Source: a virus
Lineage: Duplodnaviria; Heunggongvirae; Uroviricota; Caudoviricetes
Reading direction: 5' to 3' (one strand)
DNA: 64,000 nt
IMG/VR virus record: IMGVR_UViG_2541047879_000001
Below, one piece after another: positions 36,267-60,731 of the stretch. Position 1 is the first letter of the stretch, and each line of letters opens with the position of its first letter. The notes below the pieces were generated by a model. That model had not been told where the DNA came from, did not search any database, and worked only from the letters and a program-made list of their open reading frames with translations. The position numbers and the translations under genes are program-made.

Positions 36267-36488
36267 TTAATTTGAATACAATGCAATTCTCGAGGACTGA
36301 AGTTTCTCGCAATTAAAATTTATCAGTTTTACTTTCTGCTCTCTGGAAACGCCTGCTTCTTTTTTACCTGAGAGCATTTTTTCGTATTCTGATTTCGTTA
36401 GTTTAGATTTTGAATATCTTGTCCAGTTAGTAGGAGTGCCACCTTCCTTTTCAATAGTGGCGGTAATTTTATACATGAACACCTCCAT
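36267..36488 (-). CDS. ydaC: YdaC/RcbA-like small protein
   Basis: Small ORF in Rac order between xis and ralR; start chosen at internal Met. Confidence 0.45.
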   Translation of the reverse strand: MEVFMYKITATIEKEGGTPTNWTRYSKSKLTKSEYEKMLSGKKEAGVSREQKVKLINFNCEKLQSSRIALYSN

Positions 36489-52219: not shown

Positions 52220-52657
52220 TGTACGTAAGTGTAAATAGAGCTAAGAGATTATATATTGACTCTGGTTATCTCTATTAGCACATGCTTTTTGTAATGCCTT
52301 AACTGATTATTTAAACTCCTGTCAGCTTTTCGCTCAAAGCGGACTAAAGTGTTGGCTTGTGACTGACTTAGCGCATTTAAGGAAGTGGTGGTGGTGACGG
52401 GGTGTTGTGTCCCATTTCCACAGAATAAATCAGAGAAACTATAGCGGCTGTAATGGCAATCTATGGTCTTGCTATTGCTCTTATGGATCACCTTTCTGAT
52501 TGATTTCATATTGGCGAGGTAACGGGAGTTAAGTAGAATAGCTGCGGGTGCTTGAGGCTGTCTGCCTCGGGCATGAACACCAAAGGCAGATAGAGAAAAG
52601 CCCCAGTTAACATTACGCGTCCGGCAAGACGCTTAACATTAATCTGAGGCCACATCT

Positions 52658-52906
52658 ATGCTTTGCATACGTAGATTAGCCTCTTACCGACCAAAAGGTC
52701 AAGGAGAAGCAGGCTATGAAGCAGCAAAAGGCGATGTTAATCACCCTGATCGTCATCTGTTTAACCGTTATAGTGACGGTACTGGTAACGAGGAAAGACC
52801 TCTGCGAGGTACGAATCCGAACCGACCAGACGGAGGTCGCTGTCTTCACAGCTTACGAACTTGGGGAGTAAGAGGACCAGCGGGGAGAAATCCCCGCAAC
52901 CTCTGA
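52658..52906 (+). CDS. Possible mok-like overlapping reading frame of the hok locus
   Basis: ORF starting 58 nt upstream of hok and overlapping it in another frame, as in hok/sok/mok loci; positional inference. Confidence 0.3.
   Translation: MLCIRRLASYRPKGQGEAGYEAAKGDVNHPDRHLFNRYSDGTGNEERPLRGTNPNRPDGGRCLHSLRTWGVRGPAGRNPRNL
52716..52871 (+). CDS. hok: Hok-family membrane toxin (HokD/RelF-like), type I toxin
   Basis: 51-aa ORF MKQQKAMLITLIVICLTVIVTVLVTRKDLCEVRIRTDQTEVAVFTAYELGE found by reading (below track cutoff). Confidence 0.8.
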   Translation: MKQQKAMLITLIVICLTVIVTVLVTRKDLCEVRIRTDQTEVAVFTAYELGE

Positions 52907-53934: not shown

Positions 53935-54224
53935 TGGTGAATTTACGTAAAGCGGCTAAAGGCCAGATGTGCCAGATCAGAATCCCTGGCTACTGCAATC
54001 ACAATCCCGAAACCTCTGTGCTGGCGCATTACAGGCTGGCGGGGACGTGCGGAACAGCGACAAAACCACACGATATGCAGGCGGCGATAGCCTGTAGCTC
54101 ATGCCACGATCTAATCGACGGGCGGGTAAAAACCAGCGATTACACCAAAGAAGAATTGCGCCTGATGCATGCTGAAGGGGTTTTTCGCACACAAGAAATC
54201 TGGAGAAAGAAAGGTCATTTATGA
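53934..54224 (+). CDS. Small Cys-rich nin-region protein (YbcO-like)
   Basis: 96 aa with CQIRIPGYCNH ... CSSCH cysteines; position just upstream of Q. Confidence 0.5.
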   Translation: MVNLRKAAKGQMCQIRIPGYCNHNPETSVLAHYRLAGTCGTATKPHDMQAAIACSSCHDLIDGRVKTSDYTKEELRLMHAEGVFRTQEIWRKKGHL

Positions 54225-54763
54225 TTTACCCAACGAATACAGGAAAAAGCGGAGAACACCTTCGCCTCACCACGCTGGAAAGTGTCTGGATTCAGGGAAA
54301 ACTACGTATGTGGGGGCGCTGGTCGTATATTGGCGGTGGCAGGTCAGGGAATATGTTCAATCAGTTGTTGGCATCCAAAAAACTGACGAAAACAGCCATT
54401 AATGAAGCCCTGCGCAGAATGAAAAAAGCGGGAATAGAGAAAGCTGAGCTGGAAGCGTTTTTGCGAGAGATGATCAACGGCAAGCAAAAGAGCTGGCTGG
54501 CGCATTGTACTGATGCAGAGGCGTTATGTATTGATCGAGTCATAAGTGAGGTGCTGGCAGAGCATCCAGGATTGATTTGCATTCTCCGGCAACGCTATGA
54601 AGGGCGGGGGATGACTAAGCGCAAAATGGCTGAATTGCTAAATGATGCACACCCAGAGTGGTGTTTTAGCACATGCGAAAAACGGATTGCTAATTGGTTA
54701 GCTGTTGCTGAGTATGCCCTATATATTCCCATGCGTGAATCATTTGCTGAGAAAATGGCTTGA
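54221..54763 (+). CDS. Late-gene antiterminator Q (phage 21/82 type)
   Basis: 180-aa protein immediately upstream of terminator hairpin and lysis cassette; C-terminal sigma-region-4-like HTH (LRQRYEGRGMTKRKMAELL). Confidence 0.6.
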   Translation: MIYPTNTGKSGEHLRLTTLESVWIQGKLRMWGRWSYIGGGRSGNMFNQLLASKKLTKTAINEALRRMKKAGIEKAELEAFLREMINGKQKSWLAHCTDAEALCIDRVISEVLAEHPGLICILRQRYEGRGMTKRKMAELLNDAHPEWCFSTCEKRIANWLAVAEYALYIPMRESFAEKMA

Positions 54764-54845
54764 TTTCTTACGTATAAACTGCTTCAATTTTGCTATGCTT
54801 CGCAAAGCTGTATCGCGAGGCGGATTGCAGACATGGACATCGTAA

Positions 54846-54870
54846 AAAAACCGCTTAATGCGGTTTTTTT
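54846..54870 (+). terminator. Intrinsic terminator hairpin (tR'-like), potentially bidirectional
   Basis: aaaaaccgc-ttaat-gcggttttttt; A-run on one side and T-run on the other. Confidence 0.55.
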
Positions 54871-55807
54871 ACGTCAGGAAAGCAGGGGAGAATGCTGCTA
54901 GTTGGGCAACTGGTCTTTCTGCTCCAAATTATAACAGAGACCAGTTATAGTTTCGGTGCTGTGTTTTTTTTACAATATTGTGATAACACATTGCTGGCGG
55001 GAGTTTTGATATTTCTTGGCAGGGGCTGATGATGCGTTATCCTGATGTCGTCAACTCATATAAAATGAGATGAGAGATCATTGCAGGGTGGTTTGTAATT
55101 CGCTGTTTAGCGGGACAATATGTTGTCTGATACAAGACACCCGACGCCTCAGATTACTATAATAAAGACGAAGCATCCTTTGTATTGACCAACCGCCTGT
55201 TTAGGCGGTTCTTTTTGGGCTGGTTTATTGTATGCCAAATGATTATTAAAAAGGTTGTGTTAATAACAAAACCCGAAATAATATGCCTGCATATTTTTAT
55301 CTTGCTTATATTCTGCATATTGTGCATAGCAGGCTCATCCCTGCAATCAAAACTGTATGATGAGTATTTTTTGTTTTCCTTTTTTCCAGTCATCTGATGA
55401 TGACCTGCTTCTTTTTAATCCGGATCGACATCAGTTTTTTAAGATAATTCCTGCGAGTTATATGCATAAATACCACAAACTCCGCATTTTATGTGGTTGG
55501 GAGTTGCCGGGCGCGCAGTGAGTTTGCTAAGAAAACTCCTGCATGGTGAATCCCCCTGTGCGGTGGGGTGATACCATTAACCTTTTCTGTCGCCGACAGG
55601 TATCACGAACATTTTGTTCACCGGGAGGCACCCGGCACCATGCACTTCAATAGATTCTCTCCACATTATGGATATTCTTTCAGAATATCCCACGCAGACT
55701 TTGTGTAAATGTTAACAAATGTGCGTTTTATTTGATCTGATTCGCTGTTTGAGCGTCCAAAACAACGGTATATATAATCCTTTACTATATGACATATGTG
55801 AGGAAAA

Positions 55808-56236
55808 ATGGGTTTTCGTAGCGCATCAATTCTTACGTTGATTATTAGTGGGATTATTATCGGGTGCACTGATGCTGTATCGACAAATTATCATGACCGT
55901 ACATCATATTACTCCGATAAAGCAATAGAGACACAGTATGTGAGTTCATCTGAACGTACTTCTGATGTTAGTGAGGATATCCGTCTGTATGCCCATCAAA
56001 TCAAGAGCGCCATCGAAAAACAGTTCGGGGATGCGAGTAAGTATTCAGGAAAAGAGTGTACACTGAGAATGCATATGGCCCCGAATGGCCTTCTACTGGA
56101 GGTTAAAAGAGAAAGTGGAGACCTCGATTTATGTCGTGAAGCGATGAATGCGATAAAGAATGCTGATATACCTGCCCCCCCTTCGCCGGAAGTATATAAA
56201 GTATTTCAAAATGGGGTGCTGGATTTTAAACCCTGA
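55808..56236 (+). CDS. Lipoprotein with TolA C-terminal (domain III)-like fold
   Basis: Lipobox IIGC; C-terminal YAHQIKSAIEKQFGDASKYSGKECTLRMHMAPNGLLLEVKRESGDLDLCREAMNAIKNADIPAPPSPEVYKVFQNGVLDFKP aligns with E. coli TolA domain III. Confidence 0.7.
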   Translation: MGFRSASILTLIISGIIIGCTDAVSTNYHDRTSYYSDKAIETQYVSSSERTSDVSEDIRLYAHQIKSAIEKQFGDASKYSGKECTLRMHMAPNGLLLEVKRESGDLDLCREAMNAIKNADIPAPPSPEVYKVFQNGVLDFKP

Positions 56237-56386
56237 TATTTATTGTTTTGTAATAAACGGTTTCGGCTTAGGTTTGTTCTGACACAGCTACGGCACTGAG
56301 CTAAATTTAGCGGATAGTCAGCTCTGAGCCAGTGGCGGACGTAACAACTACTATTGCTGAGATTTTAATGGATTGAGGAGCAAGAA

Positions 56387-56782
56387 GTGGGATTAAAGAA
56401 AATCGTTATGTTGACTTTTTGGGTCGGTTTTGTTGCGGGATGCACACCTTTACACCCTTCAGATTGCCACAAAACTACTGCTACAGGTAGTTGCAGTTCA
56501 GGACGCTGGGATGATCAGGATGAATGGGGGGCGCAAGCGCGGGGAATCAGAGCTGCAATTAATGCCAAACTTGATGAGCCGCATAACTGGAAAGGGAAAA
56601 AATGCAGGTTGCATATGGAATTCTCTCAGGATGGCACGGCGTTAAAAATATCTACCAGTAACGGTGATAAAGCCTATTGCGAAGCGATAAAGTCCGCAGC
56701 TCATAAAGCCAAATTTCCGGCCTTCAACAATCCGGAAGTCTACAGAGATTTTCAGAAATCTGGCTTTGACATGCGAGGTTAG
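56387..56782 (+). CDS. Second TolA-domain-III-like lipoprotein (diverged paralogue)
   Basis: Lipobox VAGC; same GK.C.L.M....G..L......GD...C.A...A..KA.FP....PEVY..FQ pattern. Confidence 0.6.
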   Translation: MGLKKIVMLTFWVGFVAGCTPLHPSDCHKTTATGSCSSGRWDDQDEWGAQARGIRAAINAKLDEPHNWKGKKCRLHMEFSQDGTALKISTSNGDKAYCEAIKSAAHKAKFPAFNNPEVYRDFQKSGFDMRG

Positions 56783-57033
56783 CTCTTCAATTACTATATC
56801 TCATTCATAGCAAACTGACAGATTTGATGATGTTCTATATACGAAACCTGTGATGTCAAGTCTGAGCTAATACAAATAAACATAATATCAGAGAAATACA
56901 TTTTATTAGCTCGCTACGGCGAGCTTTTTATATTGCATCGTCTCCAGCATATATATCAATTAAGGCTCTGATTGATGTGTCTGAAAGCCTACACATAATA
57001 ACTATGCCATCCGTTCCGTGCGGAGGTGAGGCT

Positions 57034-57249
57034 ATGAAATCCATGGACAAAATTTCAACAGGCATTGCCTACGGCACCTCCGCAGGCAGTGCTGGCTACT
57101 GGTTTTTACAGTTGCTCGATAGAGTAACTCCGTCACAGTGGGCTGCAATCGGTGTGCTGGGTAGTCTGGTATTTGGCCTGCTGACGTACCTGACAAACCT
57201 TTATTTCAAGATTAAAGAAGATAAGCGCAAGGCTGCGAGAGGTGAATAA
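57034..57249 (+). CDS. Holin, phage-21 S-type pinholin with dual-start motif
   Basis: [26 protein letters not shown]... 71 aa; two in-frame starts (57034 and 57043); RBS ggaggtgag. Confidence 0.8.
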
Positions 57250-57746
57250 TGCCTCCATCATTACGAAAAGTCGTTGCTGCTGCTATTGGTGGCGGAGCAA
57301 TTGCTATAGCATCAGTGTTAATCACTGGCCCAAGTGGTAACGATGGTCTGGAAGGTGTCAGCTACATACCATACAAAGATATTGTTGGTGTATGGACTGT
57401 ATGTCACGGGCATACAGGAAAAGACATCATGCTCGGTAAAACGTATACCAAAGCAGAATGCAAAACACTCTTGAATAAAGACCTTGCCACGGTCGCCAGA
57501 CAAATTAACCCGTACATCAAAGTCGATATACCGGAAACAACGCGCGGCGCTCTTTACTCATTCGTTTACAACGTGGGTGCTGGCAATTTCAGAACATCGA
57601 CGCTTCTTCGCAAAATAAACCAGGGCGATATCAAAGGCGCATGTGATCAGCTACGTCGCTGGACATATGCTGGCGGTAAGCAATGGAAAGGTCTCATGAC
57701 TCGTCGTGAGATTGAGCGTGAAATCTGTTTGTGGGGTCAGCAATGA
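57249..57746 (+). CDS. SAR endolysin (phage-21 R-type lysozyme)
   Basis: N-terminal signal-anchor [17 protein letters not shown] then lysozyme domain; TAATG overlap with holin stop. Confidence 0.85.
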
Positions 57747-58207
57747 ACAGAGTAACCGCGATTATCTCCGCTCTGGTTATCTGCATCGTCGTCTGCCTGT
57801 CATGGGGTGTTAATCATTACCGTGATAACGCCATCGCCTACAAAGAACAGCGCGACAAAAATGCCAGAGAACTGAAGCTGGCGAACGCGGCAATTACTGA
57901 CATGCAGATGCGTCAGCGTGATGTTGCTGCGCTCGATGCAAAATACACGAAGGAGTTAGCTGATGCGAAAGCTGAAAATGATGTTCTGCGTGATGATGTT
58001 GCCGCTGGTCGTCGTCGGTTGCACATCAAAGCAGTCTGTCAGTCAGTGCGTGAAGCCACCACCGCCTCCGGCGTGGATAATGCAGCCTCCCCCCGACTGG
58101 CAGACACCGCTGAACGGGATTATTTCACCCTCCGGGAACGACTGGTAATGATGCAGGCCCAACTTGAAGGTGCTCAGCAATACATAACCGAGCAGTGTTT
58201 AAAGTAA
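57743..58207 (+). CDS. i-spanin Rz
   Basis: N-terminal TM helix then coiled coil; ATGA overlap with endolysin. Confidence 0.8.
57963..58148 (+). CDS. o-spanin Rz1 (embedded in Rz, +1 frame)
   Basis: 61-aa lipoprotein, lipobox VVGC, proline-rich mature part, fully nested within Rz. Confidence 0.8.
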
Positions 58208-58344
58208 AATCTTAACTACAATATGATTCATTTTGATGATTGTTTCATAAGGAACAGTGAAGTAAGATCTAAGAGGAGTTAAATTTTATACAGTATAATC
58301 ATAATATTGCAGCAAGGTGGTTATAATTGAAAGAATATTTAGAT

Positions 58345-59802
58345 ATGAATACATCTCATGTAAGAGTTGTTACTCATATGTGTGGGTTCCTGGTTTGGCT
58401 CTATAGTCTTTCAATGTTGCCACCAATGGTTGTAGCATTGTTTTATAAAGAAAAAAGCCTGTTCGTTTTCTTTATAACTTTCGTTATATTTTTTTGCATT
58501 GGTGGCGGAGCGTGGTATACAACTAAGAAATCTGGCATTCAATTACGTACCCGTGATGGGTTTATTATAATTGTAATGTTTTGGATTTTGTTTTCTGTTA
58601 TTAGTGCATTCCCTTTATGGATTGACTCAGAACTTAATTTAACGTTCATTGATGCTCTGTTTGAAGGGGTTTCTGGAATAACAACAACAGGAGCAACTGT
58701 AATTGATGATGTTAGTTCATTACCTCGGGCATATTTGTACTATCGGTCACAGTTAAATTTTATAGGTGGTTTAGGAGTTATTGTTCTGGCGGTTGCTGTA
58801 TTGCCATTATTGGGTATTGGTGGTGCAAAGCTTTATCAGTCAGAAATGCCGGGGCCATTTAAGGATGACAAACTCACTCCCCGCCTGGCCGATACGTCAC
58901 GGACACTGTGGATAACTTATTCTTTATTAGGTATTGCTTGTATTGTCTGTTATAGACTTGCAGGAATGCCTTTGTTTGATGCTATTTGTCACGGGATTTC
59001 CACAGTTTCGCTTGGTGGTTTCTCAACTCATAGCGAGAGTATCGGATATTTTAATAACTATTTGGTTGAGCTGGTGGCTGGTTCTTTTTCCCTGCTATCG
59101 GCTTTCAACTTCACTCTTTGGTATATTGTTATTAGCAGGAAAACGATAAAACCTTTAATCAGAGATATTGAACTTCGTTTCTTTCTGTTAATAGCCTTAG
59201 GGGTGATCATTGTTACCTCTTTCCAGGTCTGGCATATAGGTATGTATGACTTGCATGGAAGTTTTATTCATTCGTTTTTTCTTGCCAGCTCCATGCTCAC
59301 TGATAATGGTTTAGCTACGCAGGATTATGCAAGTTGGCCCACGCACACGATAGTGTTTTTGCTGTTGTCAAGTTTCTTTGGGGGATGTATAGGTTCAACT
59401 TGTGGTGGAATTAAGTCACTTCGATTTCTTATACTTTTCAAACAAAGCAAACACGAGATAAATCAGCTTTCTCATCCCAGAGCGTTGTTGAGTGTAAATG
59501 TAGGAGGGAAGATAGTTACAGATCGTGTAATGAGGTCTGTATGGAGTTTCTTTTTTCTTTATACTCTCTTCACGGTGTTTTTTATACTGGTGTTAAATGG
59601 TATGGGATATGATTTTCTTACATCATTTGCAACAGTGGCTGCATGTATTAATAATATGGGATTAGGTTTTGGGGCTACTGCATCGTCATTCGGAGTGCTT
59701 AATGACATTGCAAAATGTTTAATGTGCATAGCTATGATTCTTGGTCGCCTTGAAATTTATCCTGTTATTATATTGTTTTCAGGTTTTTTTTGGCGCTCCT
59801 AA
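58345..59802 (+). CDS. trkG: Potassium uptake protein TrkG (TrkH family)
   Basis: Polytopic membrane protein with repeated GGxGG-type selectivity-filter-like segments; AT-rich; Rac location. Confidence 0.85.
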   Translation: MNTSHVRVVTHMCGFLVWLYSLSMLPPMVVALFYKEKSLFVFFITFVIFFCIGGGAWYTTKKSGIQLRTRDGFIIIVMFWILFSVISAFPLWIDSELNLTFIDALFEGVSGITTTGATVIDDVSSLPRAYLYYRSQLNFIGGLGVIVLAVAVLPLLGIGGAKLYQSEMPGPFKDDKLTPRLADTSRTLWITYSLLGIACIVCYRLAGMPLFDAICHGISTVSLGGFSTHSESIGYFNNYLVELVAGSFSLLSAFNFTLWYIVISRKTIKPLIRDIELRFFLLIALGVIIVTSFQVWHIGMYDLHGSFIHSFFLASSMLTDNGLATQDYASWPTHTIVFLLLSSFFGGCIGSTCGGIKSLRFLILFKQSKHEINQLSHPRALLSVNVGGKIVTDRVMRSVWSFFFLYTLFTVFFILVLNGMGYDFLTSFATVAACINNMGLGFGATASSFGVLNDIAKCLMCIAMILGRLEIYPVIILFSGFFWRS

Positions 59803-59939
59803 TATATGGCTGATTTATAATTGTGAGTTTAATATTATGTTGACTCACTCATTGATCCAATACCTAACTTTACCAGCAACCCCTCCGTCCCCAGTAGCAC
59901 TGGCTGCTGGGGTGCGTTTTATTCATAAAGCAAGGCTGT

Positions 59940-60731
59940 ATGAGCGAGAAATTAAAGATAGTCTATCGCCCATTACAAGAATTGTCACCGTATGCGCACA
60001 ACGCCAGGACGCACAGCCCTGAGCAGGTGGCACAACTGGTAGAAAGTATTAAGCAATTCGGCTGGACTAATCCGGTGCTGATTGACGAAAAGGGCGAAAT
60101 TATTGCGGGTCACGGTCGTGTTATGGCGGCTGAAATGCTCAAAATGGATTCTGTTCCGGTCATTGTTCTGTCTGGCCTGACGGATGAGCAGAAAAAGGCG
60201 TACCGCCTGGCAGATAATCGCCTGCCGATGAATGCTGGCTGGGATGAAGATCTGTTGCGGATGGAGCTGTCGGACCTAATCAATGCTGATTTTGATGTCT
60301 CCCTGACAGGCTTCATCCCGACAGAAATTGATGAACTGTTGACGGATGTTTTGCCCGGTACAGGAAATGAGGAGGAGCCGTATACGACGAAAATTGATAC
60401 GCCTGTTTATGAGCCGTCGGGCGGTAAACCGGATATCAGTGAACTGTACGACGATACGAAAACTCAGGAGCTGATCAGCCGGATACGTTCGGCGTCCCTT
60501 GAGCCTGATATTGAGAAATTCCTCCTGTGTGCGGCAGAACGTCACACGGTGTTTAATTTCAGCAGAATTGCGGACTATTACGCTCACGCCCCCTCTGAAA
60601 TTCAGTGTTTTTTCGAGGAGTCGGCGCTGGTGATCATTGATTATCAGCAGGCTATTGAAAATGGATTTGTCCGGATGACGCAGCGCATGGTGGAGATCAT
60701 GCATGGTGGTGAGGAGGAGGAATATGCGTGA
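59940..60731 (+). CDS. ynaK: ParB-like nuclease domain protein (YnaK-like)
   Basis: N-terminal ParB/Srx-type motif (LIDEKGEIIAGHGRVMAA), acidic C-terminus. Confidence 0.6.
   Translation: MSEKLKIVYRPLQELSPYAHNARTHSPEQVAQLVESIKQFGWTNPVLIDEKGEIIAGHGRVMAAEMLKMDSVPVIVLSGLTDEQKKAYRLADNRLPMNAGWDEDLLRMELSDLINADFDVSLTGFIPTEIDELLTDVLPGTGNEEEPYTTKIDTPVYEPSGGKPDISELYDDTKTQELISRIRSASLEPDIEKFLLCAAERHTVFNFSRIADYYAHAPSEIQCFFEESALVIIDYQQAIENGFVRMTQRMVEIMHGGEEEEYA

Follow-up and report, generated by a model that had tools for sequence, protein, structure and literature searches.

A stretch of 64,000 nucleotides of Caudoviricetes DNA (IMG/VR record IMGVR_UViG_2541047879_000001; "the window" below means this whole stretch) contained two adjacent open reading frames (ORFs), ORF1 and ORF2, encoding small lipoproteins whose C-terminal parts correspond to domain III of the cell envelope protein TolA (TolAIII). 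Both genes were intact in the ORF list and lay on the + strand, where the first-pass annotation of the window had placed them: ORF1 (55808–56236) encodes 142 amino acids and ORF2 (56387–56782), which begins with GTG, 131 amino acids. The N-terminal sequence of ORF1 is MGFRSASILTLIISGIIIGC, followed by TDA after the lipobox cysteine, and that of ORF2 is MGLKKIVMLTFWVGFVAGC, followed by TPL. The lipobox cysteines are codon 20 of ORF1 (55865–55867) and codon 19 of ORF2 (56441–56443), with Thr at position +2 in both. The n-regions are short, with a basic R4 in ORF1 and K4–K5 in ORF2, and precede a hydrophobic core and the lipobox; IIGC of ORF1 and VAGC of ORF2, which the first-pass annotation had also recognized, satisfied the consensus [LVI][ASTVI][GAS]C, and equivalents were found in all variants. 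RefSeq places the start of ORF2 at 56408, 21 nt downstream of the GTG codon; we favored the upstream GTG because the Lys-Lys n-region is kept in homologues of other genera. In E. coli, a lipoprotein without Asp at position +2 is sorted to the outer membrane. Since the +2 residue was Thr and not Asp, both ORF1 and ORF2 are predicted to be outer membrane lipoproteins anchored in the inner leaflet and facing the periplasm.

The assignment of the C-terminal domains, already made in the first-pass annotation from an alignment with TolA, was confirmed by profile and pairwise searches. Against the Pfam family PF06519 (TolA_C; gathering cut-off, 25 bits), ORF1 and ORF2 scored 82.6 bits (E = 2.4e-23) and 54.6 bits (E = 1.3e-14), respectively, each covering nearly the whole 96-position profile. 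In a phmmer search of Protein Data Bank (PDB) sequences, E. coli TolA chains were the sole matches (ORF1, E = 5e-28; ORF2, E = 5e-9), and tblastn comparison with TolA of E. coli K-12 gave 60.5% identity between residues 57–142 of ORF1 and residues 336–421 of TolA (86 amino acids) and 33.8% identity over 77 amino acids for ORF2. The pattern GK.C.L....G.LL......GD...C, which the annotation had ascribed to both proteins, was complete in ORF1; in ORF2 it was complete except for AL in place of LL. The two cysteines that form the disulfide bond of TolA (C363 and C388) did not vary among the 19 aligned members, which came from both lineages. A weak match of ORF1 to TonB_2 (E = 5.6e-5) was also obtained.

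Structure prediction agreed with these results. In the AlphaFold2 models, the domains had predicted local distance difference test (pLDDT) values of 83–96, and the N-terminal 40–50 residues were disordered, with a linker pLDDT below 50. Both models contained the TolAIII fold, that is, a long N-terminal helix, a three-stranded sheet, and two further helices. When the models were compared with PDB entries by Foldseek, the structural similarity to TolA domain III that the first-pass annotation had expected was borne out for the predicted structures: the ORF1 model matched 2x9a_B with a root-mean-square deviation (rmsd) of 0.6 Å (TMt 0.96) and the ORF2 model matched 3qdp with an rmsd of 1.1 Å (TMt 0.92). 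The next matches were TolA proteins of Vibrio cholerae and Pseudomonas aeruginosa, and TonB domains were far behind. On these sequence profiles and predicted folds, the homology of both proteins with TolA domain III is certain.

What ORF1 and ORF2 lack distinguishes them from TolA itself. E. coli TolA has 421 amino acids and includes domains I and II, whereas neither the inner-membrane helix of domain I, which binds TolQR, nor the Ala/Lys/Glu-rich helical domain II was present in ORF1 or ORF2, which have a signal peptide and linkers of 20–34 residues instead. ORF1 consists of the signal peptide, a disordered linker from residue 21 to approximately residue 53, and TolA domain III at residues 54–142 (55967–56233), and ORF2 consists of the signal peptide, a Cys-containing linker, and TolA domain III at residues 41–131 (approximately 56507–56779). 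The NCBIfam TolA equivalog models aligned with the two proteins through their last 80–100 positions or so alone. Both scores for NF007065 (107.8 for ORF1 and 53.7 for ORF2) were below its cut-off of 213, and for TIGR02794 (cut-off, 59.45) ORF2 was again below at 47.2, whereas ORF1 passed numerically at 75.6, matching profile positions 265–362 alone. Nor did the genes belong to a ybgC-tolQRA-tolB-pal-cpoB cluster, as judged by comparison with the K-12 tol cluster; they lay in a prophage late region. Because they are without the domain I helix and domain II, ORF1 and ORF2 cannot transduce energy and so are not TolA in function. They share with TolA domain III (PF06519; PDB 1TOL, 2X9A, 3QDP/3QDR, and 1S62) its fold, order of secondary structures, and disulfide cysteine pair, but they stand alone on a lipoprotein tether, outside the tolQRAB-pal operon and on mobile elements. 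Taken from the sequences and models together, each protein is predicted to be a free-standing, complete TolA domain III, with its disulfide, on a flexible lipid-anchored tether, and nothing else.

These features are concealed by current database labels. In strain ECCHD184 (locus L001, 8477–8737), PGAP/RefSeq annotated ORF1 as a tolA pseudogene, "incomplete; missing N-terminus", with the start placed inside the domain, and in other genomes the same gene carries a full "tolA" coding sequence annotation. The source names of the exact sequences were all derived from homology ("cell envelope integrity protein TolA", "tolA family protein", and "colicin import membrane protein"). Both labels, tolA pseudogene and full tolA coding sequence, are misleading for an intact 142-residue lipoprotein, the exact sequence of which was found on at least 1000 contigs.

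We compared the residues by which TolA recognizes its ligands with those of ORF1 and ORF2. Colicin A binds TolA at strand 375–380 with cation-pi contacts at K368, K379, and K396, and g3p, ColN, and TolB bind the opposite side of TolA (PMC3365938). The interactions at the TolA tip are beta-strand additions of low to moderate affinity; with TolB, a parallel strand augmentation with a Kd of 40–250 µM is formed (PMC7066135). ORF1 keeps the equivalents of K379 and K396 and has His in place of K368; its sequence LLEVKR corresponds to LLDIKP of TolA, and its C-terminal VLDFKP to PLDFKP. In ORF2, all three colicin A-contacting lysines are replaced (by Glu, Ser, and His), and the C-terminus is GFDMRG. 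From these comparisons, ORF1 looks competent for the known ligands of TolA, with both faces nearly intact, and ORF2 looks re-specialized, having diverged on both faces.

ORF1 and ORF2 were only 29% identical to each other, and the first-pass annotation had taken the existence of two diverged copies as a sign of diversifying selection. Ratios of nonsynonymous to synonymous substitution rates (dN/dS) calculated pairwise by the Nei-Gojobori method contradicted this: every pairwise value was below 1, and no sign of diversifying selection was seen in the pairs for ORF1 or ORF2. Comparison of ORF2 with its plasmid, Enterobacter, and Serratia copies gave dN/dS of 0.07–0.13 for the whole gene, 0.01–0.10 for the linker, and 0.06–0.15 for the domain; for ORF1 against its 91% and 66% identical variants the corresponding values were 0.26–0.39, 0.40–0.78, and 0.09–0.34. 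The linker was therefore the most constrained part of ORF2, above its TolA-like domain. This linker (56444–56530, residues 20–48) reads C-x-PLHPS-x-CHKTTATGSCSSGRWDDQDEWG and is conserved, and its extreme conservation across genera suggests that it may be more than a spacer. Because the linker with its Cys loop is conserved while both ligand faces have diverged, the ligand of ORF2 may differ from those of TolA. The linker also contains two additional cysteines and a Trp-flanked acidic motif, SGRWDDQDEWG. We considered SSGRWDD in this segment as a mimic of the colicin TolB box (DGSGW), and the resemblance was too weak. The domain of ORF1 was also compared with E. coli tolA; the synonymous divergence was saturated (dS approximately 2.5) at 59% nucleotide identity, which rules out a recent capture from a host tolA gene and indicates that the capture is old.

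The surroundings of the pair were those of a lambdoid late region. Upstream lay a late antiterminator gene of the DUF1133 family (54221–54763, + strand; RefSeq "DUF1133 family protein"; Pfam PF06576 on the L017 orthologue), a family that we take to be the Q21-type antiterminators, preceded by DUF1367 and DUF1364 genes. Downstream, all on the + strand, lay genes for an S21-like holin with a dual-start MKSM motif (57034–57249; RefSeq essD), an endolysin (57249–57746; RefSeq rrrD), Rz (57731–58207; RefSeq "lysis protein"), and an embedded Rz1 lipoprotein (57963–58148). The position between Q and the lysis genes described in the first-pass annotation was thus correct.

Candidate transcription signals on the + strand were found around the pair. 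Directly behind the antiterminator gene, 54764–54872 probably holds a Q-linked late promoter and a short leader that ends in a terminator (pR'/tR'-like), recognized by eye and missed by the automated scan; it includes a hairpin, ACCGC-TTAAT-GCGGT, followed by a run of T at approximately 54846–54870. A similarity search for the late promoter found 59 nt (54764–54822) conserved in other phages and prophages and nothing longer, and this first mini-unit was conserved beside Q21-type genes. The consensus scan located a second promoter-like site, AAGACA-18-TATAAT (55134–55163), with a terminator-like hairpin (55191–55210). This second unit (55134–55210) forms the left end of a block, 55135–56237, that accompanies ORF1-type genes in prophages whose Q belongs to another family. 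For this reason, the second unit may be the remnant of a late promoter and leader that a previous host phage carried. Further downstream, 55511–55697 matched the STnc100 family (Rfam RF02076; 86.6 bits against a gathering score of 47; E = 3.7e-17), a prophage small RNA (sRNA) related to PasD (2026 preprint). A sigma-70 promoter-like site, TTGAGC-18-TATAAT (55749–55778; 10 of 12 consensus positions), lay 30 nt before ORF1, inside a block common to phage mEp460_ev081 and the prophages with ORF1 alone. In the spacer between ORF1 and ORF2 a weak promoter-like site (56279–56307) matched the consensus at 9 of 12 positions, as many as shuffled sequences would give, and the consensus scan gave no terminator after ORF1. 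Between ORF2 and the holin gene it gave an intrinsic-terminator-like hairpin, AGCTCGC-TACG-GCGAGCT followed by TTTTTATATT (56908–56935; hairpin, 56908–56925). The promoter and terminator calls of the scan are consensus matches, with 11 promoter-like sites found where 6.3 were expected. Read in this way, the pair has a moron-like anatomy inside the late operon, with a putative promoter and terminator of its own.

ORF1-type genes were closely tied to this position. A protein search returned 46 clusters, in which every source name given was E. coli or Shigella, and 898 of 5426 complete E. coli genomes carried the gene, 782 of them at 99% identity or more. E. coli K-12 has neither ORF1 nor ORF2. 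Variants at 91%, 74% (a mosaic), and approximately 66% identity all lay between Q and the holin gene of different lambdoid prophages, which had differing Q and holin families and no ORF2-type gene. In E. coli 2014C-3097 (locus L132, 6508–7375), an 80% identical variant occupied the exact stx position of a Stx-phage-like prophage, in the order Q, DNA methylase, tRNA-Ile, tRNA-Arg, ORF1 variant, nanS-p, DUF1378, DUF826, and holin. The first-pass annotation had described the slot as the one in which Stx sits, and this variant, exactly where stxAB would be, bears that out.

ORF2-type genes had a much wider range. They formed 370 clusters at 90% identity, and the 120 clusters listed were 78–99% identical to ORF2. 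The type was present in 28 species representatives, with 66–89% identity outside E. coli and Shigella, in the genera Citrobacter, Enterobacter, Klebsiella, Raoultella, Leclercia, Lelliottia, Kluyvera, Pluralibacter, Yokenella, Buttiauxella, Pantoea, and Serratia. Two non-enterobacterial exceptions were 8-kb contigs with an ORF2-type gene at 89% in metagenome-assembled genomes of Lachnospiraceae (L105) and Treponemataceae (L106); their flanks are common to enterobacterial plasmids, and contamination of the metagenome bins by plasmids is most likely. Approximately 600 plasmids carried an ORF2-type gene, at approximately 87% nucleotide identity. On IncI1/B/O and IncK/Z plasmids it immediately followed the relaxase gene, and on a pO157-like IncF plasmid it lay between hok and toxB. 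On chromosomes it was a solitary gene, in approximately 20 different neighborhoods among 32 loci, with unrelated and mostly housekeeping neighbors; no recurrent partner was found among 30 immediate neighbors. In Serratia marcescens (L008, 6957–8736) it stood beside GmrSD_N (DUF262) and HEPN-domain genes, the clearest defence-like neighborhood found, and in Leclercia (L120) the gene downstream of it encodes an SMC_N/AAA_21 (AbiEii-like) ATPase.

The first-pass annotation had called the two genes tandem paralogues. The DNA shared with other ORF2-type copies, 56357–56785, begins approximately 30 nt before ORF2 and ends with the ORF2 stop codon, and the DNA shared with prophages that have ORF1 alone, 55135–56237, ends at the ORF1 stop. 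A local tandem duplication was rejected, since the two types belong to separate lineages with separate distributions, ORF1-type genes occur without ORF2, and the shared blocks break between the two genes; the separate distributions and block boundaries indicate that the adjacency is a juxtaposition of two cassettes. The Q-to-holin interval of related prophages held the pair, an ORF1-type gene alone, or other cargo. The pair itself was also present in phage mEp460_ev081, in a block (55520–57250) behind a different Q; among 50,697 phage records, this phage was the sole carrier of either gene. The STnc100 sRNA gene accompanies the cassette into mEp460_ev081. A scan of IMG/VR yielded mainly identical E. 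coli prophage copies.

ORF2 was also searched exhaustively with phmmer against 1.84 billion representatives at 50% identity. The search gave 130 hits, most of them 120–150 amino acids long and at least 64 with a lipobox, so that the short TolAIII lipoprotein is a recurrent, unnamed architecture. None of the 64 lipobox-bearing relatives had Asp at +2. In PHROGs, the match was phrog_5772, a family of unknown function; the BFVD collection of viral structures contained no TolAIII-like match at E ≤ 1e-3, and full-text searches of the literature turned up no functional work on TolAIII lipoproteins of prophages or plasmids. The TolA_C domain is catalogued; its stand-alone lipoprotein form on mobile elements is uncharacterized in the literature searched.

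The TolA tip is a common entry point of group A colicins and of filamentous phages (Ff on F pili and If1 on I pili). Our preferred reading, held tentatively and with somewhat less than even confidence, is that ORF1 and ORF2 are outer membrane-tethered TolAIII mimics that soak up Tol-dependent invaders, a function that we infer from the sequences and models. In this mechanism, the TolAIII copy would be a tethered sink close to the outer membrane, binding the N1 domain of filamentous-phage g3p (pIII) as well as the translocation domains of group A colicins and of related bacteriocins. Invaders caught at the outer membrane would not be handed to the energized TolQRA complex, and the lysogen or plasmid host would gain tolerance. 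In a lysogen, both genes would be transcribed weakly from their own promoter, with transcription stopped at the terminator before the holin gene, and on induction, Q-modified polymerase would add further transcription.

A precedent for such sequestration exists with the roles exchanged. Periplasmic pIII-N1 sequesters TolA, resulting in colicin A resistance and a 4-log lower phage uptake (PMC10424213). The proposed decoy would exploit the same pair of TolA tip and N1 domain as this superinfection exclusion by periplasmic pIII/g3p-N1, or by the full-length pIII that filamentous phages make, and tolerance to colicin A and Ff phage would be expected of it too (PMC10424213, PMC3102678); by analogy, however, its polarity would be reversed, because here the receptor domain is copied and the invader would be sequestered. 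The complex of If1 g3p with TolA is PDB 2X9A, which appeared in the Foldseek match list. Pili of I-complex plasmids are the receptor of If1 (PMC3102678). The decoy reading is compatible with all that was found and gains indirect support from the presence of ORF2-type genes on I-complex plasmids and in chromosomal islets without lysis genes, and these sites, together with the promoter- and terminator-like sites of the pair, fit a protective trait better than a lysis accessory. Between the two proteins, ORF1 is the better candidate for a broad decoy, as judged from its ligand faces. The first-pass annotation had proposed a decoy role in colicin tolerance or superinfection exclusion; a role for ORF2 against colicin A is unlikely because the equivalents of K368, K379, and K396 are all replaced.

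Several observations weigh against the decoy. ORF2 has lost all three of the lysines that contact colicin A. Neither ORF1 nor ORF2 had a match in PADLOC-DB 2.0 at E values up to 1, and the chromosomal neighbors of ORF2-type genes are mostly housekeeping genes and not defence genes. The confinement of ORF1-type genes to the late-operon slot also fits a role in lytic growth. The promoter and terminator calls for the pair rest on consensus, with the modest excess over expectation given above. Finally, a tethered TolAIII could titrate the N-terminus of TolB and thereby harm the cell that makes it.

This last property is the basis of the strongest alternative, that the proteins are antagonists of Tol-Pal in lytic growth, which we regard as unlikely overall. 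Here, tethered TolAIII made in bulk by late expression would capture the TolB N-terminus, so that TolA would fail to free Pal from TolB. Pal would then be kept from the peptidoglycan, and the outer membrane would become loose, with the blebbing and leakage of a tol phenotype, which would aid lysis or the release of virions and cargo. Levengood-Freyermuth and colleagues reportedly observed in 1993 that periplasmic overproduction of the TolA C-terminal domain caused leakiness and colicin tolerance. The genes stand directly upstream of the holin gene within the Q-dependent transcription unit, ORF1-type genes were found only in the late slot across many lambdoid prophages, ORF1 retains the C-terminal face common to g3p, ColN, and TolB, and Tol cannot function unless TolB is bound by strand augmentation (PMC7066135). 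A 32-fold ciprofloxacin induction has been reported for a CP-933O gene linked there to TolA, the identity of the gene not being confirmed (PMC11125564). However, ORF2-type genes are under strong purifying selection on plasmids and chromosomes without lysis genes, the pair is set off from the holin gene by a terminator-like hairpin and ORF1 has a promoter-like site in front of it, a full set of holin, endolysin, and spanin genes is already present in the cassette, and the stx slot typically carries cargo dispensable for lysis. For ORF1, with its late-slot confinement and retained TolB-side face, this alternative is hard to exclude, and the decoy and antagonist readings could hold side by side, each at its own dose, low or high.

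An improbable alternative, less so than the one considered after it, is an envelope-fitness or virulence lipoprotein of the Bor/Iss/TraT kind, which would bind TolB, CpoB, or Pal and alter outer membrane stability, vesiculation, or serum and bile resistance for the benefit of the carrier. The lambda bor lipoprotein gene lies beside the lysis genes, which offers an analogy. Carriage on the pO157-like virulence plasmid adjoining toxB, presence in roughly one in six complete E. coli genomes, and the many Enterobacteriaceae that have a solitary chromosomal gene with no defence neighbors are all consistent with such a trait, whereas a non-energized TolAIII is expected to compete with TolA and not to assist it. 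Still less probable is a strand-capture domain retargeted to the Ton box, or to another exposed strand like it, in an outer membrane transporter, which would block phages or group B colicins in an exclusion of the Cor/Llp type. This would apply especially to ORF2, which has diverged on both TolA ligand faces yet is very strongly conserved, linker included; the TonB_2 match of ORF1 and the position of TonB C-terminal domains as more distant structural neighbors point in the same direction. Against it, TolA is a much nearer match than TonB for both proteins, in sequence as well as in structure, and no transporter is genetically linked, a single Lelliottia locus adjoining tonB probably by chance. 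That the genes are decayed, functionless tolA fragments, as the PGAP pseudogene flag on ORF1 in ECCHD184 would have it, is very improbable and was rejected, since the frames are intact, every variant has a lipobox, dN/dS is well below 1, ORF1 is repeated exactly on at least 1000 contigs, ORF2-type genes persist at 66–89% identity across 28 species representatives, and the saturated dS of approximately 2.5 against E. coli tolA is not that of a recent broken copy.

Other small lipoproteins offer parallels. Cor (phages phi80, N15, and mEp) and Llp (T5) are outer membrane lipoproteins that exclude phages, and lambda Bor and F TraT confer envelope traits. In common with ORF1 and ORF2, they are small lipoproteins that temperate phages or plasmids carry as cargo and that act alone at the envelope. 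ORF1 and ORF2 have no sequence or fold relationship to this group, whose members block an outer membrane receptor and are not mimics of a periplasmic co-receptor. With stxAB and other Q-to-holin cargo, the pair shares its position and likely a dual transcription, from its own promoter and by Q read-through, but the product is unrelated.

If the decoy reading is true, a mobile, tethered TolA tip would be a simple and so far undescribed shield for the hosts of prophages and plasmids; otherwise it would be a means of Tol-Pal sabotage, and under either reading the proteins would offer a natural dominant-negative probe of the Tol-Pal mechanism. A bolder extension, which we hold with more doubt than the decoy itself, is that this would be the first recognized receptor-domain decoy defence: a single-gene, outer membrane-tethered TolA tip on mobile elements, among them the I-complex plasmids whose pili draw If1, that would intercept Tol-dependent bacteriocins and filamentous phages, with two lineages tuned to different invaders and a wider gammaproteobacterial family of short TolAIII lipoproteins acting alike. 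Because the genes are common in E. coli (ORF1 type, 898 of 5426 complete genomes) and on plasmids (ORF2 type, approximately 600, with pO157-like and I-complex resistance plasmids among them), effects on colicin ecology, on phage-display hosts, and on the use of pilus-specific phages against conjugative plasmids are possible. The genes are hidden from screens for accessory functions because databases mislabel them as TolA or, in one genome, as a tolA pseudogene.

Other parts of the window were also inspected. Between Rz and the terminase genes, trkG (low guanine-cytosine content, 37.8%) and the ParB-like ynaK (58327–60731, + strand) are placed as in the Rac prophage of K-12, and the host prophage looks like a fuller Rac relative that retains its lysis cassette. 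Positions 1–25000 belong to a Mu-like transposable prophage, with a DUF935 portal, tail sheath, tape measure, and DNA circularization protein; its identity to a few E. coli genomes was approximately 98–99%. Two RNAs of type I toxin-antitoxin systems were detected on the + strand at 36292–36470 and 52546–52721: the antitoxin sRNA RalA, near ralR, scored 222 bits, and sok, adjoining hokD, scored 105 bits.

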